Origin: a virus
Taxonomy: Duplodnaviria; Caudoviricetes
Direction: 5' to 3' (one strand)
Length of the DNA: 64,000 bases
IMG/VR virus record: IMGVR_UViG_3300017700_000931
Span: 1-64,000 of that record
The translations under genes and the position numbers were made by a program. Position 1 is the first letter of the stretch, and each line of letters begins with the position of its first letter. Of this stretch, positions 31,184-56,789 are shown in pieces. Under the pieces are notes generated by a model. That model was not told the DNA's origin. It saw only the letters and a program-made list of their open reading frames with translations, and searched no databases.

Positions 31184-31267
31184 CGGTCTAGGAGGGATTC
31201 GAACCCACGTACATCCTTTCGGATTCCAGATTGAAAGTCTGGTGGCCTAGACCGCTAGCCGACGGCA
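31184..31267 (-). tRNA. tRNA-Glu(UUC) variant with rearranged acceptor and long variable arm
   Basis: CCAGA CU-UUC-AA UCUGG; 3' CCUAGACCGC pairs with GCGGUCUAGG in D region. Confidence 0.65.
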
Positions 31268-31278
31268 ACATTTAAAAG

Positions 31279-31350
31279 TACTCGGTAAGGGAATCGAACC
31301 CTTATTTAATGGCTGAAAACCATTCGTCCTAACCATTAGACGAACCGAGC
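31279..31350 (-). tRNA. tRNA-Glu(UUC)
   Basis: AAUGG UU-UUC-AG CCAUU. Confidence 0.88.
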
Positions 31351-31361
31351 ATCATATCAAT

Positions 31362-31373
31362 ATGTCAATGAAC
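31362..31373 (-). promoter_or_regulatory. boxA-like site
   Basis: GUUCAUUGACAU. Confidence 0.55.
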
Positions 31374-31387
31374 AATTTATTCTTTTG

Positions 31388-31459
31388 TGTGACCTCCCAG
31401 ATTCGAACTGGGCTTTCTTGGGCTTCAACCAAACGAAGGACCCCTGCTTCCAAGGTCAC
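31388..31459 (-). tRNA. tRNA-Phe(GAA)
   Basis: UUUGG UU-GAA-GC CCAAG. Confidence 0.8.
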
Positions 31460-31467
31460 ATATTTTG

Positions 31468-31540
31468 TGAGGGCAATCAGTAGCGACCTGATATCTCTGG
31501 TTTTTCAGACCAGCGCATAGACCATCTTTGCTATACCCCC
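31468..31540 (-). tRNA. tRNA-Phe(GAA), atypical T loop
   Basis: CUGGU CU-GAA-AA ACCAG; T loop GUCGCUA. Confidence 0.8.
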
Positions 31541-31554
31541 GAAATGTCATAAAC

Positions 31555-31587
31555 AAAAAAAGCTCGACCAAATTTGGTCGAGCTTTT
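31555..31587 (-). terminator. attenuator terminator, operon 2
   Basis: AGCUCGACCA/UGGUCGAGCU plus U tract. Confidence 0.9.
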
Positions 31588-31615
31588 ATCAGTGTTTTGT
31601 TTAAATACTTAAACG

Positions 31616-31705
31616 TTAACTTATGACAATACTTGACCACCCTAGGCGACAATCCGCCTCGGCTGCTTCAAAAGCAAAATCAAATATGTTGTTAACTGTT
31701 TTCAT
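31616..31705 (-). CDS. attenuator leader peptide 2 (F/D/A/E sensor)
   Basis: MKTVNNIFDFAFEAAEADCRLGWSSIVIS. Confidence 0.85.
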   Translation of the reverse strand: MKTVNNIFDFAFEAAEADCRLGWSSIVIS

Positions 31706-31750
31706 TGTATTATAAATATATTGTTTTTTATCAAAATCTTAATTACACTG

Positions 31751-31780
31751 CAAATATACGAAAGAATTTTTAATTAGCAA
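31751..31780 (-). promoter_or_regulatory. Bacteroidota-type promoter, operon 2
   Basis: TTGC ... TATATTTG. Confidence 0.8.
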
Positions 31781-31811
31781 GCTTTTTTCGAAATATTTTT
31801 TATTTTTTTTC

Positions 31812-32042
31812 TTAAGCGGTGTATTCTTTCATCAAAGTGTTGAATTCAGTATACAAATCTCTTGAGATATTTTTTCTCTTATAGTTGTTTTTGATTCTTG
31901 CTTTAACGTCAGAAACGTAATTTCTTCCGAAATCAAAAGTTCTTGATGCTTCTGATAATGAAATACCTCTGCTAATTGCTCTCTTTAAGATTCTAATACC
32001 ATTCTTAACGCTGGTTTCTGTTTTTGTACTTGTGTTTCTCAT
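31812..32042 (-). CDS. small HTH-like DNA-binding protein
   Basis: ISLSEASRTFDFGRNYVSDVK. Confidence 0.65.
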   Translation of the reverse strand: MRNTSTKTETSVKNGIRILKRAISRGISLSEASRTFDFGRNYVSDVKARIKNNYKRKNISRDLYTEFNTLMKEYTA

Positions 32043-32129
32043 GTTACTTTAGTTTTATTTAGATTATACCGCAAAATTATCAAGTAATTTCCAATACCAC
32101 AAGGGTTTTAACTAAAATAATTAATTTTG

Positions 32130-32218
32130 TAGGGGTGGTGGGACTCGAACCCACAGGTGTATCTTACGTTTGCCGTGAATTTTAAGCCCACCGCCTTTGC
32201 CAATTTGACCACACCCCC
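32130..32218 (-). tRNA. tRNA-Leu(UAA)
   Basis: GUGGG CU-UAA-AA UUCAC; long variable arm. Confidence 0.88.
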
Positions 32219-32227
32219 ATTTAATAG

Positions 32228-32298
32228 TAGCCCCAGATGGAATCGAACCATCGCTTTCTCCACGTCAAGGAGATATACTCCCATTATATTATGGGGCC
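32228..32298 (-). tRNA. tRNA-Val(GAC)
   Basis: UCUCC UU-GAC-GU GGAGA. Confidence 0.88.
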
Positions 32299-32303
32299 AT
32301 TTG

Positions 32304-32389
32304 TAGCGGGAGGTGGATTCGAACCACCGCAAGCCTTCTTAGGGTCTCTAGGTTATGAGCCTAGCGAGTTACCACTTCTCCATCCCGCA
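32304..32389 (-). tRNA. tRNA(CAU), initiator-like, long variable arm
   Basis: 1:72 mismatch; CUAGG CU-CAU-AA CCUAG; 19-nt variable region. Confidence 0.7.
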
Positions 32390-32394
32390 ATTTG

Positions 32395-32478
32395 TACCGA
32401 AGGTGGGATTCGAACCCACACGCCCTTTCGGACACTGGTTTCTAAAACCAGCACGTCTAACCGTTCCATCACTTCGGC
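32395..32478 (-). tRNA. tRNA-Leu(UAG)
   Basis: CUGGU UU-UAG-AA ACCAG. Confidence 0.9.
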
Positions 32479-32484
32479 ATATTG

Positions 32485-32572
32485 TACCCCTACTCAGACT
32501 CGAACTGAGAACGTTTCTTATGTTTTCCACGGCTTCTTAGACCGTAAGCTTTACCAGTTTGCTCATAAGGGC
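32485..32572 (-). tRNA. tRNA-Leu(AAG)
   Basis: ACGGU CU-AAG-AA GCCGU; long variable arm. Confidence 0.85.
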
Positions 32573-32628
32573 ATGTTCGGGCTACTATTCATTCGTCAAT
32601 ACCGCCCGACCGTATTGATTCCAAATTG

Positions 32629-32714
32629 TTGCAAAGGTAGGACTCGAACCTACAATTGGGTTTGCGACCCTCTCCCTCTCCGGGAGATGCGTATACCGAT
32701 TCCGCCACATTGCA
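32629..32714 (-). tRNA. tRNA-Leu(GAG)
   Basis: UCUCC CG-GAG-AG GGAGA (G33). Confidence 0.8.
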
Positions 32715-32741
32715 AGGATACTTGTACTTCGTATCCCTTTG

Positions 32742-32827
32742 TAGCCGAGGCGGGACTCGAACCCGCACGGGCATTTCTGCCCACCGGATTTTAAGTCCGG
32801 CGTGTCTACCAATTCCACCACTCGGCC
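32742..32827 (-). tRNA. tRNA-Leu(UAA)
   Basis: CCGGA CU-UAA-AA UCCGG. Confidence 0.92.
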
Positions 32828-32835
32828 ATCAGTTG

Positions 32836-32916
32836 TAGGGGCGGTGGGATTCGAACCCACATGCTCTAGGCGGTAGCTTTTGAAACTACTGCGTCTGCCA
32901 ATTCCGCCACGCCCCC
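32836..32916 (-). tRNA. tRNA-Leu(CAA)
   Basis: GUAGU UU-CAA-AA GCUAC. Confidence 0.9.
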
Positions 32917-32923
32917 ATTTATG

Positions 32924-32995
32924 TACCCTCGACTGGAATCGAACCAGTGCTTTCTGCATGTAAAACAAACGTGACTACCATTACACCACGAAGGC
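32924..32995 (-). tRNA. tRNA-Val(UAC)
   Basis: UUUGU UU-UAC-AU GCAGA. Confidence 0.85.
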
Positions 32996-32997
32996 AA

Positions 32998-33204
32998 TTA
33001 TATTCTATCAAAGTATTTAATCCAAACATCTAAATCCTCAAGTTCTATTTTAGTCAATTTACCAACACTACCTCTAATCGTATGTGATATTTTCAAATCA
33101 CCATTTTCAATCGTAATGAATGTAAATCCCCTAGTCCACCCTTTTGCATCAGTGACGAAGTTTCTCATTTTAAACATCAACTCCAATTCATTAGTGCGTT
33201 CCAT
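32998..33204 (-). CDS. hypothetical protein
   Basis: start MERTNEL between two tRNA-Val. Confidence 0.6.
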   Translation of the reverse strand: MERTNELELMFKMRNFVTDAKGWTRGFTFITIENGDLKISHTIRGSVGKLTKIELEDLDVWIKYFDRI

Positions 33205-33223
33205 AACCGGATTAATTACTATG

Positions 33224-33295
33224 TTGGAGCAGAGGGATTCGAACCCCCGACCTAGTGCATGTAACACACCAACTCTACCGCTGAGCTATACTCCA
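33224..33295 (-). tRNA. tRNA-Val(UAC)
   Basis: GGUGU GU-UAC-AU GCACU. Confidence 0.85.
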
Positions 33296-33330
33296 ATTTG
33301 ATAGGAATTACAACCTATCGTATTATTTTG

Positions 33331-33416
33331 AGCATGTGATAGGATTCGAACCTATGATGAGGGTTGCCCCATACGGTTTTGCAGACCGTTGCCTTCGACC
33401 ACTCGACCACACATGC
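33331..33416 (-). tRNA. tRNA-Cys(GCA), long variable arm
   Basis: ACGGU CU-GCA-AA ACCGU; U73; 17-nt variable region. Confidence 0.85.
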
Positions 33417-33430
33417 ATTTTATTTTGGTC

Positions 33431-33464
33431 AAAAAAAAAGCTCGAACTTTTTGAGTTCGAGCTT
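33431..33464 (-). terminator. attenuator terminator, operon 3
   Basis: AGCUCGAACU/AGUUCGAGCU plus U tract. Confidence 0.9.
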
Positions 33465-33488
33465 GAATATCTTTGGTATTAATCTTTA

Positions 33489-33581
33489 TTAACTTCCAAT
33501 CACATAGACATAGCTCGAACACTCTAACACCAATAGGCATAAGACTGAGTTAAGGAGCACTATGTTTACAAAATTGTTCAT
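33489..33581 (-). CDS. attenuator leader peptide 3 (V/L/C sensor)
   Basis: MNNFVNIVLLNSVLCLLVLECSSYVYVIGS. Confidence 0.85.
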   Translation of the reverse strand: MNNFVNIVLLNSVLCLLVLECSSYVYVIGS

Positions 33582-33615
33582 TGAAGATTTCTACGTTTTA
33601 TTATTAAATATATCA

Positions 33616-33645
33616 CAAAGATACTAATGTTATTTGAATTAGCAA
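33616..33645 (-). promoter_or_regulatory. Bacteroidota-type promoter, operon 3
   Basis: TTGC ... TATCTTTG. Confidence 0.8.
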
Positions 33646-33704
33646 TGATTTTTATAAATTATTTTTAAAATATTTTTTAATCGATTGATTTTGTGATATT
33701 TAAC

Positions 33705-33929
33705 TCATGATAAATTAACTGATAATTCTCCATTATTAAACCAACTTTCGGTATAAGTGATACTATAGTCGGTTAATGTTTTACCTACAATTCTTTTCAT
33801 TTCATCACTATTACCTGTGATAATGATTACCGATTTGGAGCCACCCATCAGGTGGTATCCAATGAATTTATCTACCTCTCTGGATACATCCGCATGTTTT
33901 ATACCATGTAAATCTAAACTATTTTTCAT
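33705..33929 (-). CDS. Smr-like domain protein
   Basis: LDLHG...VDKFI...IIITG. Confidence 0.7.
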   Translation of the reverse strand: MKNSLDLHGIKHADVSREVDKFIGYHLMGGSKSVIIITGNSDEMKRIVGKTLTDYSITYTESWFNNGELSVNLS

Positions 33930-34386
33930 TATTAATTTTTTTCAATATGTTAAGTACATTTATTACTGTTGCTTCATTATTGGTTTTGGAACCTAGCCAT
34001 AATAAATATCTTTTCATCTCATCTAATTCTAATAATGTAAGTTTACTAAGCCACTTACCTTTAAATTTACCAGTTATAAATGTGTAATCATCAGATACTT
34101 TCCTAATGACACCACATCTAGGATTTTTATTTGTATTTCTTATTGAGACCGGATGGATTAATTTACTACCTTCCAATTTTTTACACTCAATAACATACCT
34201 GTTACCCTTTCTTAGGGTTATTGTATCAAAAATTTTAGCACGGTTGGAGTGATATTCACCTGACATGTCTTCTCCGGCATCATTTCTCACACCGGACCAC
34301 ATCATTTGTAAATCACCAACAAAGTTATCTGATTTTTTTGGTTCTAAGTCTTTTAAACCATTAAATGTTGCATACAATCTAATCAT
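33919..34386 (-). CDS. hypothetical protein
   Basis: 155-aa ORF. Confidence 0.7.
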   Translation of the reverse strand: MIRLYATFNGLKDLEPKKSDNFVGDLQMMWSGVRNDAGEDMSGEYHSNRAKIFDTITLRKGNRYVIECKKLEGSKLIHPVSIRNTNKNPRCGVIRKVSDDYTFITGKFKGKWLSKLTLLELDEMKRYLLWLGSKTNNEATVINVLNILKKINNEK

Positions 34387-34906
34387 TTATTGGTCCCTCA
34401 TATTTTTCATCAGAATATTTAGATGATGTCACACAATCATAATCCATATCCCATGATGTTATTACAAAATTAAGTGATAAACACACAACACCATCGATAA
34501 TTTCTCTCCTTGCATGAAAATGACCTCGTCTATAATCAGAATGGCCATAATCATTTTCTTCCCACGTAGAAATTTCATTTAATAAATCACTAGCCGTTTC
34601 TTTTAAACGTTCTATAGATGTGATATCAATAATTCTGTTATGGTATCTATTAGAAAATGCCTCATAGTATTTTTTTATTAAATCAAAATCCATGTCTTCT
34701 AAAATCCAATGAATTTGTTCTTTAGTTGACATTTGTGGTAAAGTCAATAATGGCCTGTTTTTTAATTCAGTTGTTATCCGGCTTATTAATTCCTTATCTA
34801 GATTGGGTTTAGTAAGTTCTGAATGTAACTTAGTTTGTAAACCTTTATATGTGTACGTTGGGAATTCCATTGAGGCAAAATTACGTAATTTTTTATTAGT
34901 CTGCAA
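34379..34906 (-). CDS. hypothetical protein
   Basis: ORF; start uncertain. Confidence 0.65.
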   Translation of the reverse strand: MQTNKKLRNFASMEFPTYTYKGLQTKLHSELTKPNLDKELISRITTELKNRPLLTLPQMSTKEQIHWILEDMDFDLIKKYYEAFSNRYHNRIIDITSIERLKETASDLLNEISTWEENDYGHSDYRRGHFHARREIIDGVVCLSLNFVITSWDMDYDCVTSSKYSDEKYEGPIND

Positions 34907-34959
34907 TAAAAAAAGCCATACTTTTGGTATGGCTTTTACTTGTAAAAAATTTTTGAAAA

Positions 34960-35586
34960 TTATCTTTTACCATCTGCTTGTACTGTGATGCTTTGACCAC
35001 CTCTAGCTTGAGCTTCTTGAACTCTTGCTTCTCTATCAGCAGTGATTTGAGATTTGTAATCGTTAATTTGATTAACGTAAGAATCAATTTTATCTTTAGC
35101 TGTTGACAATTCTGCCTTCATTGTTGCAGAAGCAGCAGCAAATTCCAATTCTTTTGCTCTGATTTCTCCATTATGTCTTGCTGTGATAATAGCGATAGCT
35201 TTTTCAGTTTCAGCTTTAACATTTTTATCAAATGATGTTTTAGTAGATTCCAATTCACTCTTTAGTGAAGCTAGTTCACTAGCATCAATTGATACTTTAC
35301 CTTCTGATTTTAAGATTTCGTTTACCAATGAAGAAGCAGATTCTTTTGCTCTCAATTTAAGGTCTGCTTGCATTTCTCTTTCCTTTTCAGTGAAATTAAC
35401 ACTCAATTTCTCAAGTTCCGCTTGTTTTAATTCAATGTTTGTCACTAAATCTTCATATGATTCATTAGTTGCTTGTAAATCTGAAACGATTTTTGCTAAT
35501 GCTTCTGTTGCTTTGTTAATTTTTTGTGTACTAGCTTGTGCGATGCTGGTTACTTTGTTTATTTCATTACTTCCTTTTGTTGCCAT
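34960..35586 (-). CDS. coiled-coil protein
   Basis: 208 aa, Ala/Lys/Glu heptads. Confidence 0.8.
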   Translation of the reverse strand: MATKGSNEINKVTSIAQASTQKINKATEALAKIVSDLQATNESYEDLVTNIELKQAELEKLSVNFTEKEREMQADLKLRAKESASSLVNEILKSEGKVSIDASELASLKSELESTKTSFDKNVKAETEKAIAIITARHNGEIRAKELEFAAASATMKAELSTAKDKIDSYVNQINDYKSQITADREARVQEAQARGGQSITVQADGKR

Positions 35587-35810
35587 TTTAATTTTTTTAA
35601 GGCTTTGTTATGGTTTTTATTTCTAGTACAAAGATACGAAGAAACCTAGATATAGGCAAGGGTTTTTCGAACTTTTTTTTATTTTTTTTAAAGTATTTCA
35701 GTACTGATTATCAGTACTTTATGTATTTTTAATGAAAATATTTTTAATATATTAAAATAGGTCGACATTAGTCCTAAATGTTATAGTGGTGATTGAGATA
35801 TTTATAACAT

Positions 35811-36551
35811 ATGAAGCTAGTGAAATTATATGAAAGTGTTATAAAAGAAGGTCAAGTTGAGTCTTGTATTTCACAATTTGGTATGGAATTATTTTCGCCG
35901 GAATTCGGTGGTGATGAACCTAACACCGAATTAGAAAATGATTATATTGAATTAATTCATAAATTCTCTGGCAAACCACAAGGTACTAGAATCGATACTA
36001 ATATGTATAATATGGCCAACAAATTAAAAACGTGTGTTTCATATTATCCTGATATTCTTCAATCGAGAGGTTACGCTTTTAGAGGTATTAAGATTTCTAT
36101 TGCTGACTTCTTAAAATCATTCCCAGAAATAAAAGAAAGAATTAGAATGGGGCAACCATTTCAAATGGTTTATAATGCTAAAACACCGATACAAAGTTGG
36201 GGTGATGATGAGGATTCAGCTAATGATGATTTTGGGTATCGTGGGACTAGTATTGCTTCAGTATTAGATAAATTTGATGCTGCTAGAAAATCTGGAACAC
36301 TAAATGAATTCATTCAACATATAATTCACCATAATTTGGATACTGAGATTCCAATCATGATTAAATACAGAATCCAAGCTGATGATTTTATTTTCAAAGG
36401 TAAGTATTTTAATTACCTATCCAATAATGATAATAACGAAATTCTAAGAATTGATAATCGCCCAATAGAAGTATTGGCTAAGGTTAGTCCGATGGAATTT
36501 TCAACAAAATTATTTGATTTATTACAAATACTTTCTAGTTCAAAGTATTAA
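35811..36551 (+). CDS. hypothetical protein (MKLVKLYE N-terminus)
   Basis: 246-aa ORF; ATATTTATA at 35798-35806. Confidence 0.8.
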   Translation: MKLVKLYESVIKEGQVESCISQFGMELFSPEFGGDEPNTELENDYIELIHKFSGKPQGTRIDTNMYNMANKLKTCVSYYPDILQSRGYAFRGIKISIADFLKSFPEIKERIRMGQPFQMVYNAKTPIQSWGDDEDSANDDFGYRGTSIASVLDKFDAARKSGTLNEFIQHIIHHNLDTEIPIMIKYRIQADDFIFKGKYFNYLSNNDNNEILRIDNRPIEVLAKVSPMEFSTKLFDLLQILSSSKY

Positions 36552-36786
36552 CTTCTATTAGAATACCTAGAATTCCACCCATATCGGTGGCATGAAACAT
36601 TAGTTTCTCTCCAAAATGTTTATGCAACGATTCTTTGATTTTTGTACCATCACAATTTGGTTTTAATTGAAATTTTATTTCTTTATCAGTCACATTTTCA
36701 TCATCATCGAAAGTTATTTCGTCAATCCCATATTTACTTTTCAAGTAAGCAGCAATTTCTATATGCAATTCTTGTATCTCTGTCAT
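36535..36786 (-). CDS. hypothetical protein
   Basis: start MTEIQ; ATATTTATA upstream. Confidence 0.65.
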   Translation of the reverse strand: MTEIQELHIEIAAYLKSKYGIDEITFDDDENVTDKEIKFQLKPNCDGTKIKESLHKHFGEKLMFHATDMGGILGILIEVNTLN

Positions 36787-36844
36787 ATCAATAAAGTTAT
36801 ATATAAATATTGACAAACACAACCAAAAGAACTATAATTATCAA

Positions 36845-37156
36845 ATGGGAACAGTATACTTACTAAATGCTTGGGGGACCAATAAATACAAGATTGGGTT
36901 CACAAAAAGGGATATCAATTTAAGAATTAAACAATTACAAACTGGTTGCCCGGATGAAATTGTTTTAGCTAGAAAATATGAATGTGAAAATTATCAAAAA
37001 GTAGAAAAATGGCTCCATAAACAACATAGCTCCAAACGTGTTGAAGGTGAGTGGTTTTTACTGGAGGATGCTGATGTTTATAGTTTTATAAACGATTGTG
37101 ATAAGATTCATACCACAATAAAGTTATTAATCGAAGACAATCCTTTTTATAAATAA
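36845..37156 (+). CDS. T5orf172/GIY-YIG-like nuclease domain protein
   Basis: VYLL...YKIGFT...RIKQLQTG...EKWLH...GEWF. Confidence 0.85.
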   Translation: MGTVYLLNAWGTNKYKIGFTKRDINLRIKQLQTGCPDEIVLARKYECENYQKVEKWLHKQHSSKRVEGEWFLLEDADVYSFINDCDKIHTTIKLLIEDNPFYK

Positions 37157-37183
37157 AAATGGGACCCACTGGGTCCCATTTTA

Positions 37184-40014: not shown

Positions 40015-40067
40015 AGTGCAAATGTATAAATAATATTTCGATAATCCAAATTATTTTCGAAAATAAT

Positions 40068-41205: not shown

Positions 41206-41241
41206 ACACAACCCTATGAAAAATAATTTATTAAGTCAAGA

Positions 41242-46117: not shown

Positions 46118-46118
46118 A

Positions 46119-47379: not shown

Positions 47380-47409
47380 AATTCAAATGTAAAAATGCTC
47401 TAGGTTAAC

Positions 47410-48537: not shown

Positions 48538-48541
48538 TTTA

Positions 48542-49108: not shown

Positions 49109-49177
49109 AACACAATCTTTTAATTGCTCAAAGATAAGCATTATTTTTTAATCTACCAAATTTAAAGTTGATTTTAA

Positions 49178-49576: not shown

Positions 49577-49638
49577 GATAATTTTTTTATTTTAAGTATT
49601 CTACGAAGTTATCGAAAATTTTTTTAATTTATTGGTTT

Positions 49639-50034
49639 TTATGCAAACATTTTGAATTTAATTCCTAAATCATTTAGAGATTCACCAACAAGGGAATTAT
49701 ATCTACCAAAAGACCCAGACATAATTTCAGCAAAATGTGTCCATTTAACAACATGTGGCTCATCTGTTTGTATAGTGCCAGCCCAATCCTTAACCAAGTA
49801 TGTATAACCCATATAACCATCTTTATGAATGGCAAAAACCAATTCCATAGTCTTAGTATCAATACTTAATCCGGTTTCTTCATAAACTTCTCTACTCAAA
49901 GCATTTTCCATCGAATCATCCTCTGGGTCCACTTTGCCACCAGCAAGGCCGAAATCATTGTGGTCAGTTTTTCTAGAAACTGCTAAAACTTCACCCTTAT
50001 CATTTAAGATGATTGCTTGTACGGTATATTTCAT
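49639..50034 (-). CDS. NUDIX hydrolase
   Basis: GGKVD...ALSREVYEETG. Confidence 0.92.
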   Translation of the reverse strand: MKYTVQAIILNDKGEVLAVSRKTDHNDFGLAGGKVDPEDDSMENALSREVYEETGLSIDTKTMELVFAIHKDGYMGYTYLVKDWAGTIQTDEPHVVKWTHFAEIMSGSFGRYNSLVGESLNDLGIKFKMFA

Positions 50035-51029
50035 TCTGCTAAATTTGAATTACTGAATTGGTTCATACCTGTTACTTCCATGATTAGAACTTCTTTTAAC
50101 CAATCAGGAAGATTTAATTCATAGGTTTCGGATGGAAGCTCAATTTCCGCAATTACAAGTCTTAAACCATGACCAACAATGTCAGACCTAGTTCCCATCA
50201 AATCAACTTCCCATTTTAGTCCACCATCAATGTTTTTAATGAATCTACTTTTTCGAAGAGAACGTTTTTCTTTCACTGATAATGTAACATAGTCCTCCCT
50301 AGTTATTTCAATCTCATCTTCTTCGTTAGACATATGAGATATTCTATTTTTAGTTGTTTGAGTATATTCAATATCTGTAGGTAAATCTCTTTGAGTTTTT
50401 CTTATTCTTTCAACCACTGGAGCACCCTTTTCCGATAAATAAATTTGATGAATTGATAATTCATCATCCCACTTAACATTTGGTAATCGTTTAAGTAAAA
50501 ATCTCCTTTCGATTTCAATATTTATTGGTTTTTTCGGTTCCGGCTGGCTTTTCAATTCAGTCCTTAATTCCATCCACATATTACCTAATATGTTAGCTCC
50601 TTCCCAAGTACCATCTGGTAGCTTCATTGCACCCCAAAAAAGATTACTGTTTTTTGCTCCACGAGCAGTAACATCTTCGTAAATTGGTATCTCTCCAGAA
50701 CCAAGTAATATTTCTTTAAGTTCAGAATGTTGTTCAATTTTAAGCTTAATACAAAGCCTCATATTGGCTAAATCTTCTTCAGAAGTTGGGACTACTGACA
50801 TCCAATCACGATTTGCTTTTGCAACTAACTTAGCAGTAAAACCATTACTTGCTAATCTAATTTCTTCACGTATTGGGGAATTCTCAGGGAATCGCATTGC
50901 TTGAAATAATGCTTCAGTACTTTTCCACTCTATTCCATCATGAATGATTCTAAAATTTGACATATTACCCATCCAACCGAATGGTAAATTTGATTTTGTA
51001 AAGGCGATTTCTGTTATCTGATTATTCAT
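50031..51029 (-). CDS. NADAR-CYTH fusion protein
   Basis: STEALFQAMRF, FWG, GANILG..WMELR; then EIERRFL, WEVD, AEIE. Confidence 0.85.
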   Translation of the reverse strand: MNNQITEIAFTKSNLPFGWMGNMSNFRIIHDGIEWKSTEALFQAMRFPENSPIREEIRLASNGFTAKLVAKANRDWMSVVPTSEEDLANMRLCIKLKIEQHSELKEILLGSGEIPIYEDVTARGAKNSNLFWGAMKLPDGTWEGANILGNMWMELRTELKSQPEPKKPINIEIERRFLLKRLPNVKWDDELSIHQIYLSEKGAPVVERIRKTQRDLPTDIEYTQTTKNRISHMSNEEDEIEITREDYVTLSVKEKRSLRKSRFIKNIDGGLKWEVDLMGTRSDIVGHGLRLVIAEIELPSETYELNLPDWLKEVLIMEVTGMNQFSNSNLAE

Positions 51030-51340
51030 GATTCAATTATTTTTCGATATTTGGCAGTCATTACATTTAATAAATGAGTTTCAACACTCAAAGGAAATTT
51101 TTTATTCTTAACTAATCTTTTTGATTCAGTAATAAATAAATTACCAAAATATTTTAAATGAACACTTGATTTCATTAATCTCAAAGCATTCAATTTTTGG
51201 TCATACTTACAGAATATTGTATTAACTTCATGTATGTGTGCCGGATATTCTTTATTCAATATTTCAGCCAATTTTATTCCAGCTACCATATCGGTACCAC
51301 ACCAAGTAGTATGGTCAGCTATGTAAATTCTGTTTTTCAT
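51026..51340 (-). CDS. hypothetical protein
   Basis: 104-aa ORF. Confidence 0.65.
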   Translation of the reverse strand: MKNRIYIADHTTWCGTDMVAGIKLAEILNKEYPAHIHEVNTIFCKYDQKLNALRLMKSSVHLKYFGNLFITESKRLVKNKKFPLSVETHLLNVMTAKYRKIIES

Positions 51341-51343
51341 ATT

Positions 51344-51790
51344 TTATTTTGCTAAGCTCCTTACCGCAACTAACAATTCAGTCATTGAATGTACTTGTCT
51401 GACACCATACCTTGTAGCTACAATATCTACATTACCTTTTCTCCAAAAACCCTCTGGACAATACAATATCATCTTACCGCTGGCAGCATAAAGACCAAGC
51501 TCTAATAATGAAATAGGACTTTTTGTGTTCTCATCAAAATACATGAGAATAATATCAGATTTATCAAGATGGTCCAATTCCCATTCTACTTGTTCTCTGA
51601 ATTGTGGGTTATGAATAGATTGTTCCCAAGAACTATCCCAATTGTCTCTACGTGGATTAAAAATTATAACATTATAATCCTTTAGTTCTTCTTCAATTTT
51701 AGATTGCCAGTCTTCAGCAACACCCATTTCAATTGACCCAGCTAAAAATATGGATATTTTTCTAAACGGTGGTTTAATTACTTCTGCCAT
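51344..51790 (-). CDS. nucleoside 2-deoxyribosyltransferase-like protein
   Basis: IFLAGSI...WQ...FNPRR...QVEWE...SPISLLELG. Confidence 0.85.
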   Translation of the reverse strand: MAEVIKPPFRKISIFLAGSIEMGVAEDWQSKIEEELKDYNVIIFNPRRDNWDSSWEQSIHNPQFREQVEWELDHLDKSDIILMYFDENTKSPISLLELGLYAASGKMILYCPEGFWRKGNVDIVATRYGVRQVHSMTELLVAVRSLAK

Positions 51791-52227
51791 TATTTTAATT
51801 TATTTGAATCAAATTCATCATAAACTAACTTAGTTTTACTTTCTTGAATTTTACCATTCTGAACATAATAACGAGAAGGTGGGTCACCAAATCCTTGGTC
51901 CCAAGTAATATCTAATTGAAATAAAGCCGTTGGGTGTGATTTCGAAAAAATAATTAAATCTTCTTTTATATTACCACTTCCGGTTTCATTAACCCCACCT
52001 GAATTATTTATTAAATAATCTGCTGATGCACTCTCTGCTCTAAATAATTTAATAATATCTTTGACTTCAACTTCTTGCGATGATTTTCCTAACATATTAC
52101 CACACTTAGAACAATAAACTGCGTCTAATGGATAATGTGTCATGCAATTTCTACACTGCATGGATGGTTCGCTAGATAAAATTGATGGTTTTAAAACCAT
52201 CAATTTATGTTTATTATGGTAACTCAT
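51790..52227 (-). CDS. hypothetical Zn-ribbon protein
   Basis: CRNC...CSKCG. Confidence 0.7.
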   Translation of the reverse strand: MSYHNKHKLMVLKPSILSSEPSMQCRNCMTHYPLDAVYCSKCGNMLGKSSQEVEVKDIIKLFRAESASADYLINNSGGVNETGSGNIKEDLIIFSKSHPTALFQLDITWDQGFGDPPSRYYVQNGKIQESKTKLVYDEFDSNKLK

Positions 52228-53138
52228 TATTTCGTTTTTATTTCTGTAACAATTCCACTTAAATTAATATGAGAATTTAGTTTTACCCAATTAACAATGT
52301 CATTTGACATGACTGGTTTACCACCATCAGCAACATTTACTGCTAATGTAATGTGTGGTATTGCATTAGTACTTGGGTATCCAATCACTTTAACAGCAAT
52401 TACCTTATCAGTCATACCAATTTCAGTAGCCATTAAATTAACTTTCTTACCATTATCTTCCTTCATTTCGTCTGGAAGACCCTTTCCAAATATAATTGTC
52501 ATGTGGTGAGCAATTGGCTCCCAATCTTTAGGTATTTTATTAGCTAAAGCAGTGAATAATTTGCTTCTGGAAGCATCATCTAAAACAACCGCAGAAAATA
52601 AAATCTTAGGTTTATTTTTGAACATAGGTTTTGCTTTAATCACCTTTTCAAGTGTTAAAGGACCAATAGAATTCATTGACTCAATCATCATTTCAATCTT
52701 ATCTAATGGAACACCATGGGTATTTCTTTCAGCTAATTCCTCAGCCAATAATCCGGCAGTACCGACCTCAACAAATTCAATGTTTTCATCAGCATAACCA
52801 AGCTTTAAAGCAAACTCAACCAAATCTTTTGGCTCATTGGCTTTAATATTTGTGTTATCAATAATAACTGGGGAAATATCAGCTACCATAGAAGCCTTAG
52901 CGTTTTTATTGTTTTCGCTATGTACTTTATGTAGTGGTGAAAAATCTTTGGCTTCAATCATATCAGCAAAAAACTTATTGTAGTCATGTTTTGACTCAAT
53001 AATATCATCCGCTGAATGAATCACACCATTTTTAACAAGCCTTTTAGCTGCGGTAGATTTTCCAGAACCCGGAATACCACGCATAATAACCAACACATTG
53101 TTTGGTTTAGTAACTTCTATACCTAATGAATTTTTCAT
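52227..53138 (-). CDS. P-loop kinase fused to 2H cyclic phosphodiesterase
   Basis: RGIPGSGKST, IIDNTN, RNTHGVP; HHMTI and PHITL. Confidence 0.85.
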   Translation of the reverse strand: MKNSLGIEVTKPNNVLVIMRGIPGSGKSTAAKRLVKNGVIHSADDIIESKHDYNKFFADMIEAKDFSPLHKVHSENNKNAKASMVADISPVIIDNTNIKANEPKDLVEFALKLGYADENIEFVEVGTAGLLAEELAERNTHGVPLDKIEMMIESMNSIGPLTLEKVIKAKPMFKNKPKILFSAVVLDDASRSKLFTALANKIPKDWEPIAHHMTIIFGKGLPDEMKEDNGKKVNLMATEIGMTDKVIAVKVIGYPSTNAIPHITLAVNVADGGKPVMSNDIVNWVKLNSHINLSGIVTEIKTK

Positions 53139-53140
53139 GA

Positions 53141-53350
53141 TTAACAAGAACCAAATTTATAAGACATGAACATACCATCACTATCACTCCAATTGAAGCC
53201 CAAATCATCCAGTCTTTTTATATCTTCTGGAGAAATACCATCCTTCGTGATTTCTTGATTGATATACATTACTTCATGTTCGCAATGTGTTGGGCAGTCA
53301 ATGTCTTTATATTTTTGAAATATTTGTAACGCTTCAATTAATTCTTTCAT
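53141..53350 (-). CDS. hypothetical protein
   Basis: 69-aa ORF. Confidence 0.65.
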   Translation of the reverse strand: MKELIEALQIFQKYKDIDCPTHCEHEVMYINQEITKDGISPEDIKRLDDLGFNWSDSDGMFMSYKFGSC

Positions 53351-53390
53351 GAAGCAAAGATAGGAATAATTATTTAATTCACCAAATTTT

Positions 53391-54014
53391 TTAGTAAGTA
53401 AATTCGTCTAACATGATATATGGTTTATCCATAGCATTTAAAGCAATCTCAACTTCTTTAAGACACTCATGGATATGTCCCCCACATAATACTATATTTG
53501 AATAATTTGACATTTCATCCATTAAATCTGGAATGTGTAATGCATCGTCAGAAAATTCAACTAACGCTCTAATATCTTCATCACCATACTTATCAATGAA
53601 ACCATCCCAAAATTCTTCACCGAGGTCCCTAGAATCATTAACACCCTCAGCAATCATATATTTCACCAAATTAACGATTTTATCTTCGTCAATACCTTGG
53701 TCCATACAATACCTGAAGAAAGCATAACCCTTATCGTAATAGTGTGCATTAAAAGCTATATCTTCATCTAACCCTTGTTCGTACCACCAATTTTTATAAT
53801 CGTTCTCAGATATCATTCCTAATGTATCCGCACCATTATAAAGAAATGTTACCCTAGAAAGGAGTGGCATATTTTCATTGATAACATCAGCTAATTGAGA
53901 AGCCATTCTACCAAAACCACTTTGATATTCTGGTTGGATGTCAACGACTACTAAGTGCTTACCCGTAAGGTCCTCATTTAATACTTGTTCTAATATTGGT
54001 AATAATTTAATCAT
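53391..54014 (-). CDS. hypothetical protein, cysteine-hydrolase-like
   Basis: LVVVDIQP...VLCGG..HECL. Confidence 0.6.
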   Translation of the reverse strand: MIKLLPILEQVLNEDLTGKHLVVVDIQPEYQSGFGRMASQLADVINENMPLLSRVTFLYNGADTLGMISENDYKNWWYEQGLDEDIAFNAHYYDKGYAFFRYCMDQGIDEDKIVNLVKYMIAEGVNDSRDLGEEFWDGFIDKYGDEDIRALVEFSDDALHIPDLMDEMSNYSNIVLCGGHIHECLKEVEIALNAMDKPYIMLDEFTY

Positions 54015-54889
54015 GAATAATAAGATTGATATACATCACTAGTTAAACCATAATCTATAATGATGATTCTATCTTGACCATCTCTTTTAACTAATCCAAA
54101 AGTACTAAGTTTTTTTAAATCACCAGCCGGAATGCCATAATTACCAATGTATTGAAATATACCATACATGAATTCATTTTCCCACATATCAGCATAAACT
54201 TCTTTATCAATATGCATTTTAAATGGTTGTTGGCCACGTCTACTATTGACATCTTCACCGTAATTATGTACCGCTGCAACAAATTGTTCAAATGAATAAC
54301 CAGTAACTCTTTTGAAATCACCCTTATTAACTTTTCTAGCTAATTCCATTTCAATCCACAAATCATTTTGGTCATATTCAAATACACGAGCAACAATATC
54401 TTCCAAATCGGAATAATTGCTATAACTAGCTTCAACTTCATTTTGGGCTAACCCTTTTTTATTCTTGGCTAATTTAAGTACCTTTTCATCATCTACTTTA
54501 AAAACAATTCTGGAACTACCGGATGAGATTCTTTGTAAATTTTGTTGACAATACTTGATTCTTTGGTTGAATGATTTTAATGTTTTGAATTCATCAATAT
54601 TAAAATTTGATGGGTACTCTTCATCAACCATCATATTTTCTATGATATTAAAGGTTAATGACTCAGTATTTTGTGTTTCTTCGAGTTTTTTAATGATTCT
54701 CATTTTTAGAGCTGGTTTACCATTAATATGTAAGTCACCCTTATCTTCATCCCAATCAATATCCTTAACAACAACTTTTTTGTTTTTGAATTTACCCATT
54801 AGAATTGTATCACCAACTTCAATTGGTAACTCAATTACTTCCGATAACTTTTGTTTTAGTATTTTTTTTATGATGTCCTTCATAATCAT
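54011..54889 (-). CDS. kinase-like protein with N-terminal KOW-like segment
   Basis: GSSRIVF, VLKLA, IIDYG. Confidence 0.6.
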   Translation of the reverse strand: MIMKDIIKKILKQKLSEVIELPIEVGDTILMGKFKNKKVVVKDIDWDEDKGDLHINGKPALKMRIIKKLEETQNTESLTFNIIENMMVDEEYPSNFNIDEFKTLKSFNQRIKYCQQNLQRISSGSSRIVFKVDDEKVLKLAKNKKGLAQNEVEASYSNYSDLEDIVARVFEYDQNDLWIEMELARKVNKGDFKRVTGYSFEQFVAAVHNYGEDVNSRRGQQPFKMHIDKEVYADMWENEFMYGIFQYIGNYGIPAGDLKKLSTFGLVKRDGQDRIIIIDYGLTSDVYQSYYS

Positions 54890-54932
54890 AAATATTTGCT
54901 AGTTATGAAAAGACGTATTGGTAATTTTATTG

Positions 54933-55019
54933 CGGAAGAAGTAGGTCTCGAACCCAATGCGATTTTCACGCACCAATGGATTAGCAATCCACGCTCACAC
55001 CCCGATGAGTCCATCTTCC
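54933..55019 (-). tRNA. tRNA-Ser(GCU)
   Basis: GUGGA UU-GCU-AA UCCAU; G73. Confidence 0.82.
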
Positions 55020-55081
55020 ATTTATAACCACTATTATAATAGGTGGTTAGTCTTTTTATGACTAACCGAATATTTATTAGT

Positions 55082-55489
55082 ATGGAAACTAAAATATGCC
55101 CTACTTGTAATATCGATAAATCAATCGATGAATACTATTCACAAAATGATAGACCAAATGGTCAATCGTCTTGTAAAAAATGTTTTAATATTTATTGTAG
55201 TGAACGATGGATAAAGACTAAAATTAAAGCGATAGAATATAAAGGTTCTAAATGTCTTGATTGTACCCATTCATATCCTAATCAACCTTATGTTATTTTT
55301 GATTTTCACCATAGAGACCCATCAAAAAAAGATGCTGATTGGAACAAATTAAAAAAACGTTCTTGGAATAAGATTACTCAAGAACTTGATAAATGTGATT
55401 TACTTTGTTCAAATTGCCACCGTATTAGGCATCACAATATTAAATTAACAGTACCCCTATCAGGACTCGAACCTGAACTAAATGCTTAG
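55082..55489 (+). mobile_element. free-standing HNH endonuclease antisense within tRNA operon 4
   Basis: CPTC, CKKC, CLDC, FHHRDP, LCSNCHR; 3' end overlaps tRNA-Arg. Confidence 0.8.
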
Positions 55490-55523
55490 AAGGCATTTGT
55501 GCTATCCATTACACCATAGAGGC
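55452..55523 (-). tRNA. tRNA-Arg(UCU)
   Basis: AAUGC CU-UCU-AA GCAUU. Confidence 0.9.
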
Positions 55524-55530
55524 AAATTTG

Positions 55531-55602
55531 TGACCCCGACAGGATTCGAACCTGTGACCGTCGGTTTAGAAAACCGATGTTCTTCCGCTGAACTACGGGG
55601 CC
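55531..55602 (-). tRNA. tRNA-Arg(UCU)
   Basis: UCGGU UU-UCU-AA ACCGA. Confidence 0.9.
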
Positions 55603-55612
55603 AATAATTTTG

Positions 55613-55685
55613 TAGTTCCCAAGAGATTCGAACTCTTACTTCAACGTTCGTAGCGTTGGGTGCTATCCAGTTACACCAAGGAACC
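55613..55685 (-). tRNA. tRNA-Arg(ACG)
   Basis: CAACG CU-ACG-AA CGUUG. Confidence 0.9.
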
Positions 55686-55692
55686 ATTTATT

Positions 55693-55772
55693 TGGTACAG
55701 ATGATAGGATTCGAACCTACATTGCGCTCCGTTACAGCTTCTAGTTTCGAAGACTAGGCTGGCTACATCTGT
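55693..55772 (-). tRNA. tRNA-Arg(UCG), D-armless, encoded CCA
   Basis: 8-nt connector; CUAGU CU-UCG-AA ACUAG; 20-nt variable region. Confidence 0.7.
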
Positions 55773-55773
55773 A

Positions 55774-56007
55774 TTAAAATATCATTCTTTTCCTCACAAT
55801 TAAATCATGGTCATTATATGATTTAAAATCCCATCTAATTTTATCCACTTTTTGACCTTTTTCTAACCTCATTCCTTTTATTTTATTATTCTCACAAACA
55901 CTACCAATAAAATAACCAAACTTTCTAAGTATTGGATTGATGAGGACCTTTAACAAAGACCTATGATTAACAATTTTGTTATCTTTATAAAGTATTCCCA
56001 ATTTCAT
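55774..56007 (-). CDS. hypothetical protein
   Basis: 77-aa ORF starting 1 nt after tRNA-Arg(CCU). Confidence 0.65.
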   Translation of the reverse strand: MKLGILYKDNKIVNHRSLLKVLINPILRKFGYFIGSVCENNKIKGMRLEKGQKVDKIRWDFKSYNDHDLIVRKRMIF

Positions 56008-56008
56008 G

Positions 56009-56080
56009 TGACTCCGACAGGAATCGAACCTGTATCAAAAGTTTAGGAAACTTCTATTCTATCCGTTGAACTACGGAGCC
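56009..56080 (-). tRNA. tRNA-Arg(CCU)
   Basis: GAAGU UU-CCU-AA ACUUU. Confidence 0.9.
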
Positions 56081-56118
56081 ATTATCATTAATAATAAATA
56101 CTCTATAAAAATCAAGAG

Positions 56119-56190
56119 TAGCGATATACAGAATCGAACTGTAATTTCAAGGATATGAGCCGAGTGTAATAACCACTATACGATATCGCC
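56119..56190 (-). tRNA. tRNA-Met(CAU), elongator-type
   Basis: loop CU-CAU-AU; imperfect stem. Confidence 0.75.
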
Positions 56191-56195
56191 ATGTA

Positions 56196-56290
56196 AAAGT
56201 AATTTAATTATTGGGAGGTGCCCGACTTCTCCTTTTTGTATGGGTCTTTGTCAAATGAGCCAAATTTCAAACTCAACAATAAATTACTTT
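56196..56290 (-). ncRNA. spacer-encoded structured RNA
   Basis: 11-bp closing helix AAAGUAAUUUA/UAAAUUACUUU. Confidence 0.4.
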
Positions 56291-56292
56291 TG

Positions 56293-56380
56293 CTACTGGG
56301 GTGGGATTCGAACCCACGGTGGAGAATTAACTCGTCAGATTAACAGTCTGATGCATTCGGCCAACTATGCGAACCCAGTA
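56293..56380 (-). tRNA. tRNA-Asn(GUU), long variable arm
   Basis: UCAGA CU-GUU-AA UCUGA; G73. Confidence 0.85.
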
Positions 56381-56390
56381 ATAAATATTG

Positions 56391-56463
56391 CTCTCCTACT
56401 TGGATTCGAACCAAGGACCCTTCGCTTAACAGGCGAACGCTCTAACCGCTGAGCTATAGAAGA
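56391..56463 (-). tRNA. tRNA-Asn(GUU)
   Basis: UUCGC CU-GUU-AA GCGAA. Confidence 0.92.
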
Positions 56464-56544
56464 ATGTAAAATGGAGCTGAGATATTGGATTAATCGGTTT
56501 AATCCTACACCCACTTATTCAAAATATTCGTGGACTCCATTTTG

Positions 56545-56618
56545 TGGGCCTTGTTGGATTCGAACCAACCACCTACTGATTATGAGTCAGTTGCTCTAAC
56601 CGAATGAGCTAAAGGCCC
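56545..56618 (-). tRNA. tRNA(CAU), Ile2-type
   Basis: GGGCCUU body; ACUGA CU-CAU-AA UCAGU; resembles lysidine tRNA-Ile2. Confidence 0.75.
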
Positions 56619-56621
56619 AAT

Positions 56622-56711
56622 TTAAGAGTGGAGGATTCGAACCTCCGCAGGGTGCTACCCGTCCCACGACCTTCCTTTGGAATCGAACCAAACTTCAACC
56701 ATTGACTCTTA
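56622..56711 (-). ncRNA. tRNA-like RNA with two T arms
   Basis: UAAGAGU/ACUCUUA enclosing UUUGG UUCGAUU CCAAA and GGAGG UUCGAAU CCUCC. Confidence 0.6.
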
Positions 56712-56712
56712 G

Positions 56713-56789
56713 TACTGACGATGGGATTCGAACCCACTTGTAACCTATTACCCTTTCAACAAGATATAAGCTTGAGGGGATACATCAGC
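56713..56789 (-). tRNA. tRNA-Ile(UAU), D-armless
   Basis: CAAG CU-UAU-AU CUUG; connector UAUCC can pair with GGGUA. Confidence 0.65.

Follow-up and report, generated by a model that had tools for sequence, protein, structure and literature searches.

Phage tRNA-Arg(UCG) and tRNA-Ile(UAU) genes with a rewired, probably internally permuted D-arm, and a separate, altered tRNA-Glu(UUC)

Can a tRNA with no D hairpin before its anticodon arm still fold and work as an ordinary elongator? The question is raised by three tRNA-like elements in a 64-kb stretch of DNA (the window) that forms the start of a complete 362,532-bp phage genome with more than 55 tRNA genes on its minus strand. A sequence-only reading had described elements for Glu(UUC), Arg(UCG) and Ile(UAU) as D-armless; the sequence places all three at the coordinates then given, and all on the minus strand. 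Our comparison with related sequences suggests that Arg and Ile quite probably work as elongator tRNAs, with an internal circular permutation of the D/anticodon domain, and that Glu is a decayed or remodelled long-variable-arm tRNA-Glu. The features of the first two genes, and the phage gene for a CCA-adding enzyme, are listed here.

55693..55772, minus strand: tRNA-Arg(UCG) with rewired D-arm; 77 nt (55772..55696) plus encoded CCA (55693-55695)
55748-55750, minus strand: Arg anticodon, in the loop C-U-UCG-A-A
55758..55761, minus strand: Arg D-stem strand equivalent to positions 22-25 (CAGC); abuts the 5' side of the anticodon stem and pairs with 55735-55738
55735..55738, minus strand: Arg D-stem strand equivalent to positions 10-13 (GCUG); 2 nt past the anticodon stem
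55721..55734, minus strand: Arg D-loop equivalent and linker; U-A14-A15-C-G18-G19-A20 at 55728-55734, linker ending in the U48-like base 55721
56713..56789, minus strand: tRNA-Ile(UAU) with rewired D-arm; 77 nt without encoded CCA, discriminator A at 56713
56766-56768, minus strand: Ile anticodon, as read from the sequence
56777..56779, minus strand: Ile D-stem strand CCC; pairs with GGG 56751-56753, in the same columns of alignment A1 (below) as in Arg
56738..56753, minus strand: Ile GGG strand (56751-56753), D-loop equivalent (U-A-A-U-A-G-G, 56744-56750) and linker to the T stem (56738-56743)
59226..60383, minus strand: CCA-adding enzyme gene (Pfam PolyA_pol head domain, E = 5.8e-37)

The Arg(UCG) gene consists of a 7-bp acceptor stem, an 8-nt connector, a 5-bp anticodon stem, a 20-nt 'variable' stretch and a canonical T arm, and Ile(UAU) follows the same plan with a connector of 7 nt. 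The 7-8 nt between the acceptor and anticodon stems hold no D hairpin in either gene, and neither is a cloverleaf, because half of the D-arm follows the anticodon arm in the chain and pairs with the strand before it. In Arg the resulting CAGC/GCUG helix is present in the single-sequence minimum-free-energy fold, and a helix H1, here of only 2 bp, can form between GC 55726-55727 and GC 55762-55763. H1 is not evident in Ile, and this copy lacks the usual R15-Y48 match because its 48-like base is A, not Y. ARAGORN called neither gene; against the Rfam tRNA model Arg scores 39.9 bits, above the 29-bit gathering cut-off, and Ile 25.6 bits, under it.

The missed calls and the low Ile score would suit decaying pseudo-tRNAs or chance tRNA-like sequences, a reading to which we attach almost no likelihood, since dozens of divergent homologues show compensatory substitutions in all helices, and cultured Streptomyces and Microbacterium phages are among the carriers. 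A pattern scan for UCG loops separated from the T loop by a long spacer recovered 115 viral loci, about 50 of which are distinct genes with the layout, and a scan for UAU added 12 members. Alignment A1 holds 62 sequences and the model-based alignment A3 holds 82 distinct sequences, all from unrelated phage contigs; sampling in both is biased because the sequences were pattern-selected with a fixed T loop. Ile has a syntenic orthologue in a relative whose CCA enzyme is 66% identical to that of the window phage (L358:14298-14387). There, a CGU/ACG pairing replaces the CCC/GGG of the window gene, a compensatory change.

Throughout the family, the connector pairs with the 2-4 nt immediately 5' of an invariant UA-R...GG motif (62-82 homologues). 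Two A1 column pairs carry this helix, 12:43 with 4 pair types and 13:42 with 6; both are standard in 62/62 sequences, and the D-stem-equivalent pairs are likewise standard in 82/82 sequences of A3. Their covariation scores in A1 (0.82-0.95) compare with 0.21-0.25 for shuffled and at most 0.18 for slid controls. In a mutual-information scan of all column pairs with average-product correction they rank 4th and 10th; the pairs ranked higher are nearly all stem pairs, the two exceptions (14-42 and 13-14) both involving connector columns. As with the 15-48 pair of ordinary tRNAs, there is covariation between the R that follows UA and the nucleotide immediately 5' of the T stem: A1 columns 46:62 are AU in 43 sequences, GC in 15 and other in 4, and rank 16th in the scan. 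UA and GG are invariant across A1, as is the T loop. The next base after GG is A in 48 of 50 Arg members and in none of the Ile members, and the discriminator is A in all 12 Ile members. RNAalifold did not predict the D-stem equivalent, a helix of 2-4 bp that is thermodynamically weak by itself; support for it therefore comes from covariation counts and mutual information, not from energy.

Both window genes show the connector pairing 5' of UA-R..GG behind the anticodon arm, and both score highly against the family model R1 (Arg 69.7 bits, Ile 65.4 bits, as against at most 35 bits for the phage's ordinary tRNAs); the Ile orthologue in the relative scores 55.9 bits. The earlier proposals that the connector finds its pairing partner 3' of the anticodon arm, that D-loop elements have moved behind that arm, and that this is an alternative architecture are borne out, with family covariation backing the pairing and phage homologues conserving the layout.

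The description of Arg and Ile as truly D-armless fares differently. It would liken them to animal mitochondrial tRNAs in which a relocated GG hairpin in the variable region replaces the D-arm; hairpins of 3 and 4 bp around GG can indeed be drawn in the two window genes, and mitochondrial D-armless tRNAs have connectors that are just as short. However, hairpin potential across the 62 homologues equals that of the shuffled control (stems of at least 4 bp in 26/62, versus about 21.6/62 with flanks shuffled), RNAalifold predicts no such hairpin, and in 62/62 its 5' strand is the very sequence engaged in pairing with the connector. Compensatory changes mark the acceptor, anticodon and T arms, and U8 is present together with the equivalents of the D-stem, A14, R15-Y48 and G18G19. 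Nothing in Arg or Ile corresponds to the loss of the D-stem and of the D-loop/T-loop elbow elements that marks the mitochondrial type; the conserved A14, R15-Y48, G18G19 and T-loop features speak for a canonical elbow and against a relaxed fold of the mitochondrial type. We therefore regard the D-armless reading as very improbable.

Connector pairing and the 15-48-like covariation together imply that the D-stem, D-loop and core contacts are retained and that the chain order is 22-25, anticodon arm, 10-21. In the permuted tRNA that we propose, the chain would run from the acceptor 5' strand through U8, A9 and a short linker to D-stem strand 22-25 and the anticodon arm. It would continue through a linker of 2-7 nt to D-stem strand 10-13 and the D-loop (A14, R15, G18, G19, with A20 in Arg), and then through a linker ending in Y48 to the T arm and the acceptor 3' strand. 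This threading would require three new joins, 9 to 22, 45 to 10, and 21 to 46-48. The joined positions are already in contact in an ordinary L, through the 9-12-23, 10-25-45, 13-22-46 and 8-14-21 triples, so a normal L with a normal elbow could form.

Such tRNAs would be charged by the host's ArgRS and IleRS, as searches of the phage genome found a gene for neither, and would read CGA/CGG and AUA. CCA, absent from the Ile gene, could be supplied by the phage's own CCA-adding enzyme, whose gene lies upstream of the His...Arg tRNA operon. TilS and TadA were also searched for in the phage genome and are absent, its sole deaminase being dCMP-deaminase-like (ComEB); UAU and UCG (with GCG) would therefore allow AUA and CGA to be read without those enzymes. 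To that extent the suggestion of modification-independent decoding holds, but the architecture is not bound to modification-free anticodons, because ACG, UCU, CCU, GCG, GAU and CAU share the layout in other phages.

It is also conceivable that Arg and Ile are conserved tRNA mimics that do not decode, acting as decoys for host tRNA-directed nucleases or sensors, or as substrates that regulate processing enzymes. The phage has many other odd tRNA-like genes, and the layout is nearly confined to phages, appearing at one of 120 loci fetched from prokaryote genomes. Against this stand the canonical anticodon loops, the retained amino-acid-specific identity bases, the presence of whole Arg and Ile isoacceptor sets in the family, and the supply of anticodons otherwise missing from the phage: Arg(UCG) (55696-55772) and Ile(UAU) (56713-56789) are the genome's sole UCG and UAU tRNAs. 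AUA makes up 23.6% of the phage's Ile codons and CGA 8.9% of its Arg codons. Taken together these points make the mimic reading unlikely, and we favor elongators, for which the place in a tRNA operon, the CCA encoded in Arg, the identity bases and the phage's CCA-adding enzyme give indirect support. An R1 scan of the phage genome found no further rewired-D-arm tRNAs, and a search of the cultured-phage collection by DNA similarity to the whole tRNA array found no close relatives, only scattered tRNA matches.

The Glu(UUC) element is most likely a separate case, a lesion in a long-variable-arm tRNA-Glu, with the following parts.

31180..31269, minus strand: Glu(UUC) element, a long-variable-arm tRNA-Glu by full-length alignment with 14 family members and the orthologue L361:1783-1868
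31263-31269, minus strand: 5' acceptor strand
31244-31260, minus strand: D-arm
31226-31242, minus strand: anticodon arm, anticodon 31233-31235
within 31209-31225, minus strand: variable hairpin
31192-31208, minus strand: T arm
31187-31191, minus strand: 5-nt insertion
31180-31186, minus strand: 3' acceptor remnant
31183..31255, minus strand: 10-bp helix between the D-loop (31246-31255) and the 3' end (31183-31192) in the minimum-free-energy fold, which yields the 'D-armless' reading 31184-31253

Glu has a normal D-arm, a variable-arm hairpin and a UUC anticodon. What it lacks is a 7-bp acceptor directly after the T stem; the remnant strands pair at 5/7 positions. ARAGORN made no call, and the Rfam score of 35.1 bits covers model positions 7-64 only. 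The 10-bp pairing of the 3' strand with the former D region, noted earlier, does exist and is the dominant feature of the minimum-free-energy fold (-33.9 kcal/mol, z = -2.8). By origin the element is not D-armless, as 31244-31269 holds the complete sequence of a D-arm together with a 5' acceptor strand. In separating the T stem from the 3' acceptor strand, the 5 inserted nt would have disrupted the acceptor stem while completing a quasi-palindrome with the D-loop. Against R1, Glu scores 37.4 bits in an alignment that deletes the connector helix, which places it outside the rewired family.

Could the new helix instead serve a functional D-armless tRNA-Glu? RNase P would then cut at 31253, a new 7-bp acceptor would stack on the T stem with G31184 as discriminator, and the phage enzyme would add CCA. 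The helix is perfect and in register, the fold is stable, G73 is the discriminator of bacterial tRNA-Glu, and the phage owns a CCA-adding enzyme. We nevertheless consider this reading rather doubtful. It concerns a single instance that retains a now useless 5' acceptor strand and the complete D-arm sequence, its intact positional orthologue in a relative (L361:1783-1868) has an ordinary acceptor, and a canonical tRNA-Glu(UUC) lies 14 nt upstream. Moreover, bacterial GluRS depends on an augmented D helix, and R1 aligns Glu with the D-stem equivalent deleted. A search of viral contigs found no Glu relative with this D-loop/3'-end helix, two exact-word scans of metagenome contigs likewise found none, and the relatives reached through the Ile loci have no similar Glu.

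An accidental insertion would have had to land exactly in register to place a perfect helix of 7-10 bp and a G discriminator directly after the T stem. Selection for a new fold would account for this coincidence as well.

A recent paper states that all known bacterial tRNAs are cloverleaves (PMC11551756), and a 2020 review of natural non-canonical tRNAs mentions neither phages nor the rewired layout (PMC7609411). We found no published description of an internally permuted D-arm layout in the literature searched. On balance we think it reasonably likely that a natural, widespread non-cloverleaf tRNA, permuted internally at positions 10-45 and keeping its L-shape and host synthetase identity elements, works in bacterial translation. 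Phages may retain the design as an escape from host enzymes that recognize normal connectivity of the D-arm and anticodon arm, such as tRNA-directed defence nucleases. If these tRNAs are charged and used, the cloverleaf would not be the sole chain topology able to build a working L-shaped adaptor, and the rewired design would be a natural scaffold for orthogonal tRNAs. Gene finders miss this layout, which is common to many phages: one rewired copy in Streptomyces phage Mildred21 is annotated as tRNA-Phe, and two in Microbacterium phage Magritte are unannotated. Under the same proviso, phage tRNA inventories would be systematically under-counted or mislabelled. Since cultured phages carry the design, its function is directly testable at the bench.

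With canonical class I tRNA-Arg and tRNA-Ile (RF00005), the phage forms share the 7-bp acceptor, the 5-bp anticodon stem and the 7-nt loop with U33 and purine 37. They also share the 5-bp T stem with its GUUCGAAUC loop, U8, A14, R15-Y48 and G18G19, and the identity bases A20 in Arg and A73 in Ile are kept. They differ in that the D-stem strands flank the anticodon arm, with no hairpin before it and the D-loop after it, which turns the cloverleaf into a three-way junction. tRNA-Ile(UAU) reads AUA without lysidine in bacteria without TilS, as in Mycoplasma mobile and Bacillus subtilis tilS suppressors; those tRNAs have the same anticodon as the phage Ile, but are ordinary cloverleaves.

D-armless mitochondrial tRNAs, for example mt-tRNA-Ser of mammals and of Ascaris suum (PMC7609411), resemble the phage forms in their short connector and in having no D hairpin between acceptor and anticodon stems. 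They are flexible molecules that no longer make the D-loop/T-loop elbow contacts, whereas the phage forms, which occur in phages of bacteria, retain all elbow and core elements and re-thread only the chain. Metagenome mining of bacteria and phages has also yielded allo-tRNAs, non-standard tRNAs with 8/4 or 9/3 acceptor/T branches and long variable arms (PMC5389517). Glu recalls them in that an acceptor-like helix of 9-10 bp can form, but we rejected it as a 9/3 allo-tRNA on helix register. Either 2 nt or the full 5-bp T stem separates the 3-bp GGG/CCC core from the long helix, and this helix adjoins a T stem of 5 layers (GUGGG/CCCUC) to give at least 14 layers, as against a contiguous 12-bp branch of 9-bp acceptor and 3-bp T stem. 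Arg and Ile, in contrast to allo-tRNAs, have the standard 7/5 arrangement. A non-standard order of tRNA segments is also seen in the red alga Cyanidioschyzon merolae, which has circularly permuted tRNA genes. There the permutation affects the whole gene, and processing restores a normal cloverleaf. The phage tRNAs have normal ends and are permuted internally (positions 10-45), so that the permutation would persist in the mature RNA.

The tRNA-Arg(UCG) and tRNA-Ile(UAU) genes of this phage belong to a large, phage-specific class of permuted-core tRNAs. Their anatomy, as well as that of the Glu element, was borne out when the minus strand was read, and the observation made in the sequence-only reading was largely right. 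The Arg gene runs in the order 7-bp acceptor, 8-nt connector (the stretch between acceptor and anticodon stems), UCG anticodon arm, 20 nt, T arm and 3' acceptor strand, ending with a discriminator A and an encoded CCA; Ile is built alike, with a connector of 7 nt, the anticodon UAU, a stretch of 21 nt and no encoded CCA. We refer to the layout as rewired: the connector pairs with nucleotides just 5' of a UA-R..GG element, 3' of the anticodon arm. The virus record is complete (362,532 bp, with direct terminal repeats), and the window, at about 32% G+C, holds 53 tRNA genes by ARAGORN, all on the minus strand. Rfam added several that ARAGORN missed, including 55696-55772 (Arg, 39.9 bits) and 31191-31263 within the Glu element (35.1 bits, covering model positions 7-64 only); Ile scored 25.6 bits at a relaxed Rfam threshold, under the 29-bit cut-off. 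These genes and other features of the array are as follows.

55696-55772, minus strand: tRNA-Arg(UCG), with CCA encoded at 55693-55695
56713-56789, minus strand: tRNA-Ile(UAU)
31180-31269, minus strand: the Glu element, a long-variable-arm tRNA-Glu(UUC)-like gene
59226-60383: CCA-adding enzyme gene, upstream of the His...Arg operon
14755-14842, 32303-32389, 33330-33416, 56292-56380, 56919-57003, 57930-58009, 57831-57920, minus strand: long-variable-arm tRNA copies
56622-56711, minus strand: 90-nt tRNA-like gene, with 1 nt between it and the preceding Ile(UAU) and 3 nt between it and the following Met
55774-56007, minus strand: 77-codon ORF within the tRNA operon, ending 2 nt before Arg(UCG), with no family match
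24795-24890, minus strand: match to the Rfam bacterial small SRP RNA (40.9 bits; gathering score 40)
24683-25741: several odd tRNA-like elements, adjoining the SRP RNA match
26787-26875, 30584-30653, 13134-13224, 14597-14669, 15044-15110, 15598-15671, 57564-57645, minus strand: tRNA-like genes missed by ARAGORN

The array is unusual in other respects as well. The long-variable-arm copies are for Thr UGU, Met CAU, Cys GCA, Asn GUU, Ile GAU and Trp CCA, which are class I in cells; most adjoin ordinary copies, and together they look like a second tRNA set of different build. The gene at 56622-56711 combines a 7-bp acceptor and canonical T arm with a second T-arm look-alike in the anticodon-arm place and a pyrimidine at position 37, and reaches only 18.8 bits with Rfam tRNA-Sec. 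The DNA of the 77-codon ORF is 70% identical to part of a 642-kb uncultured phage (LR756502.1). At 26787-26875 a hairpin is inserted in the D-loop and the anticodon loop is apparently 8 nt; 15044-15110 is a Tyr(GUA)-like gene of 67 nt in which the D region is minimal. The CCA enzyme led to a relative, L358, at 66% identity; at 14625-14694, flanked by Asn and Arg(ACG), this relative has a tRNA-like gene of 70 nt whose anticodon loop carries CAU and whose D region is reduced.

The rewired layout is widespread in viral sequence. We searched IMG/VR contigs for UCG anticodon loops with the T-loop word 22-34 nt downstream, a spacing impossible in ordinary class I tRNAs, and obtained 115 loci. About 50 distinct sequences parse exactly as the window's Arg does, with an acceptor of 7 bp, a connector of 7-8 nt that begins with UA, and a stretch of 19-26 nt that contains UA-R, 1-3 nt and GG. 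The UAU version of the scan returned 12 Ile members of the layout, and on some contigs (L065, L091) rewired Arg and Ile occur together, as in this phage. The same UAU scan also returned a larger, distinct class of tRNA-Ile(UAU) in which the D-arm is normal and the variable arm long, found on more than 90 viral contigs (loci L117-L236, e.g. L125, L131, L139) and with a conserved, CCAGAUUAG-like variable-arm loop; it represents a further unusual tRNA design in phages for decoding AUA. When 185,579 prokaryote genomes were scanned with the UCG pattern, at least 120 loci were found, and among the matches listed only one, from a metagenome-assembled genome in which it lies on a contig of 4 kb, has the rewired layout. 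Carriers include cultured phages (numbered L490 and L492 here). Streptomyces phage Mildred21 encodes a rewired Arg(UCG) annotated as tRNA-Phe(gaa) (MF155946.1:91367-91442; 73.8 bits with R1, a covariance model built on our alignment), and Microbacterium phage Magritte (OR553905.1) has a rewired Arg(UCU) at 73446-73522 (61.8 bits) and Ile(GAU) at 73536-73612 (55.5 bits), both where its tRNA array has a gap in the annotation.

A MAFFT alignment of 62 sequences (A1) shows the pairing between connector and variable region that had been proposed. Columns 12 and 13, in the connector, pair with columns 43 and 42, which hold the two nucleotides immediately preceding UA-R; this pairing is standard in 62/62 sequences and occurs with several pair types (12:43: CG 41, GC 10, UA 10, AU 1; 13:42: GC 24, CG 23, AU 11, UA 2, GU 1, UG 1); a third pair, 14:40, is standard in 22/62. 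In the window's Arg gene the connector pairs join 55758-55761 to 55735-55738. The R of UA-R covaries with the last nucleotide before the T stem (A-U 43, G-C 15, other 4), resembling the Levitt pair (15-48) of ordinary tRNAs. Where a member's connector is 8 nt long, connector positions 9-11 also pair with the three nucleotides after GG-A, with counts of AU 16/16; AU 17 and GC 8; and CG 15 and UA 11. Covariation over the whole structure is 0.82-0.95, compared with 0.21-0.25 in shuffles (0/500 reach it) and at most 0.18 with slid partners. An all-against-all mutual-information scan with average-product correction, which did not use the proposed structure, placed 13:42 in fourth, 12:43 in tenth and the 15-48-like pair in sixteenth position; the higher-ranked pairs are nearly all stem pairs, the only two others (14-42 and 13-14) both involving these connector columns. 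RNAalifold predicted only the three classical arms and not the short connector helix, so support for that helix comes from covariation, not energy. R1 recovered 87 matches in 100 loci, and the connector pairs are again standard in all 82 distinct sequences. Calling Arg and Ile "D-armless" was therefore wrong, as a D-stem equivalent is paired throughout both sets. The suggested GG-containing hairpin after the anticodon arm finds no support: stems of at least 4 bp enclosing GG occur in 26/62 members, compared with about 21.6/62 with shuffled flanks.

The Glu element is a separate gene, and probably a defective one. Its fold is dominated by a 10-bp helix (31246-31255 with 31183-31192). A scan for UUC loops with long spacers identified a phage tRNA-Glu family whose D-arm is normal and whose variable arm is a hairpin. 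The element aligns with this family over its full length, retaining a family-like 5' acceptor strand (31263-31269) along with the D-arm, the variable hairpin and the anticodon and T arms. The relative's record has an intact 86-nt member at the matching position in the order Phe, Glu, Glu-long, Asp. Five extra bases (31187-31191) lie at the place of the family's 3' acceptor strand; the strand after the insertion pairs with the 5' strand at only 5/7 positions, and the 10-bp helix with the D-loop arises from the insertion plus a pre-existing 4-nt complementarity. The lesion may represent templated completion of a quasi-palindrome. Neither viral nor metagenome contigs yielded a second example of the helix, R1 aligns the element with the D-stem equivalent deleted, and there is a canonical tRNA-Glu(UUC) 14 nt upstream. 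A damaged paralogue is likelier, and a functional D-armless tRNA seems improbable.

The architecture had been tied to modification-free anticodons, a link that does not hold, as fetched loci show the rewired layout with UCU (14), ACG (5), CCU (5), GCG (2), GAU (4), CAU (2) and CUU (1). The phage has neither TilS nor TadA, its sole deaminase being dCMP-deaminase-like, so UAU, and UCG with GCG, would spare the phage a need for such host enzymes. Modification-independent reading thus remains plausible as a matter of anticodon choice, separate from the fold.

Arg and Ile are the sole UCG and UAU tRNAs of the phage, in which AUA accounts for 23.6% of Ile codons (19.4 per thousand) and CGA for 8.9% of Arg codons. 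They score 69.7 and 65.4 bits with R1, and the genome's ordinary tRNAs all score 35 bits or less. At the matching place in its tRNA array, L358 has a 90-nt rewired Ile(UAU) whose D-stem equivalent is CGU/ACG, compared with CCC/GGG here. An A follows GG in 48/50 Arg members and 0/12 Ile members; in bacteria, ArgRS uses A20 as a major identity element. All 12 Ile members carry A as discriminator. As the phage lacks genes for ArgRS and IleRS, host enzymes would have to charge both RNAs, which fits the retained identity bases. From this strong comparative evidence, we infer that Arg and Ile function as tRNAs.

Phages go unmentioned in a 2020 review of natural non-canonical tRNAs (PMC7609411). Our full-text literature searches found no description of the rewired layout, and the class is apparently undescribed so far.

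The layout is a rearrangement of the ordinary tRNA core. The strand just before A14 corresponds to D-stem positions 10-13. The strand it pairs with lies immediately 5' of the anticodon stem, 0-1 nt away, and corresponds to 22-25 and then 26, so that the chain still runs natively from 13 to 14 and from 25 through 26 to 27. The altered joins (9 to "22", 43-45 to "10", and 21 to 46-48) make this a circular permutation of positions 10-45. The contacts predicted for the permuted Arg and Ile RNAs are 8-14, 15-48 and G18G19 with the T loop. A normal L-shape is plausible for them, since each altered join connects spatial neighbours: in the yeast tRNA-Phe structure, 9 contacts 12-23, 45 contacts 10-25, 46 contacts 13-22, and 21 contacts 8-14.
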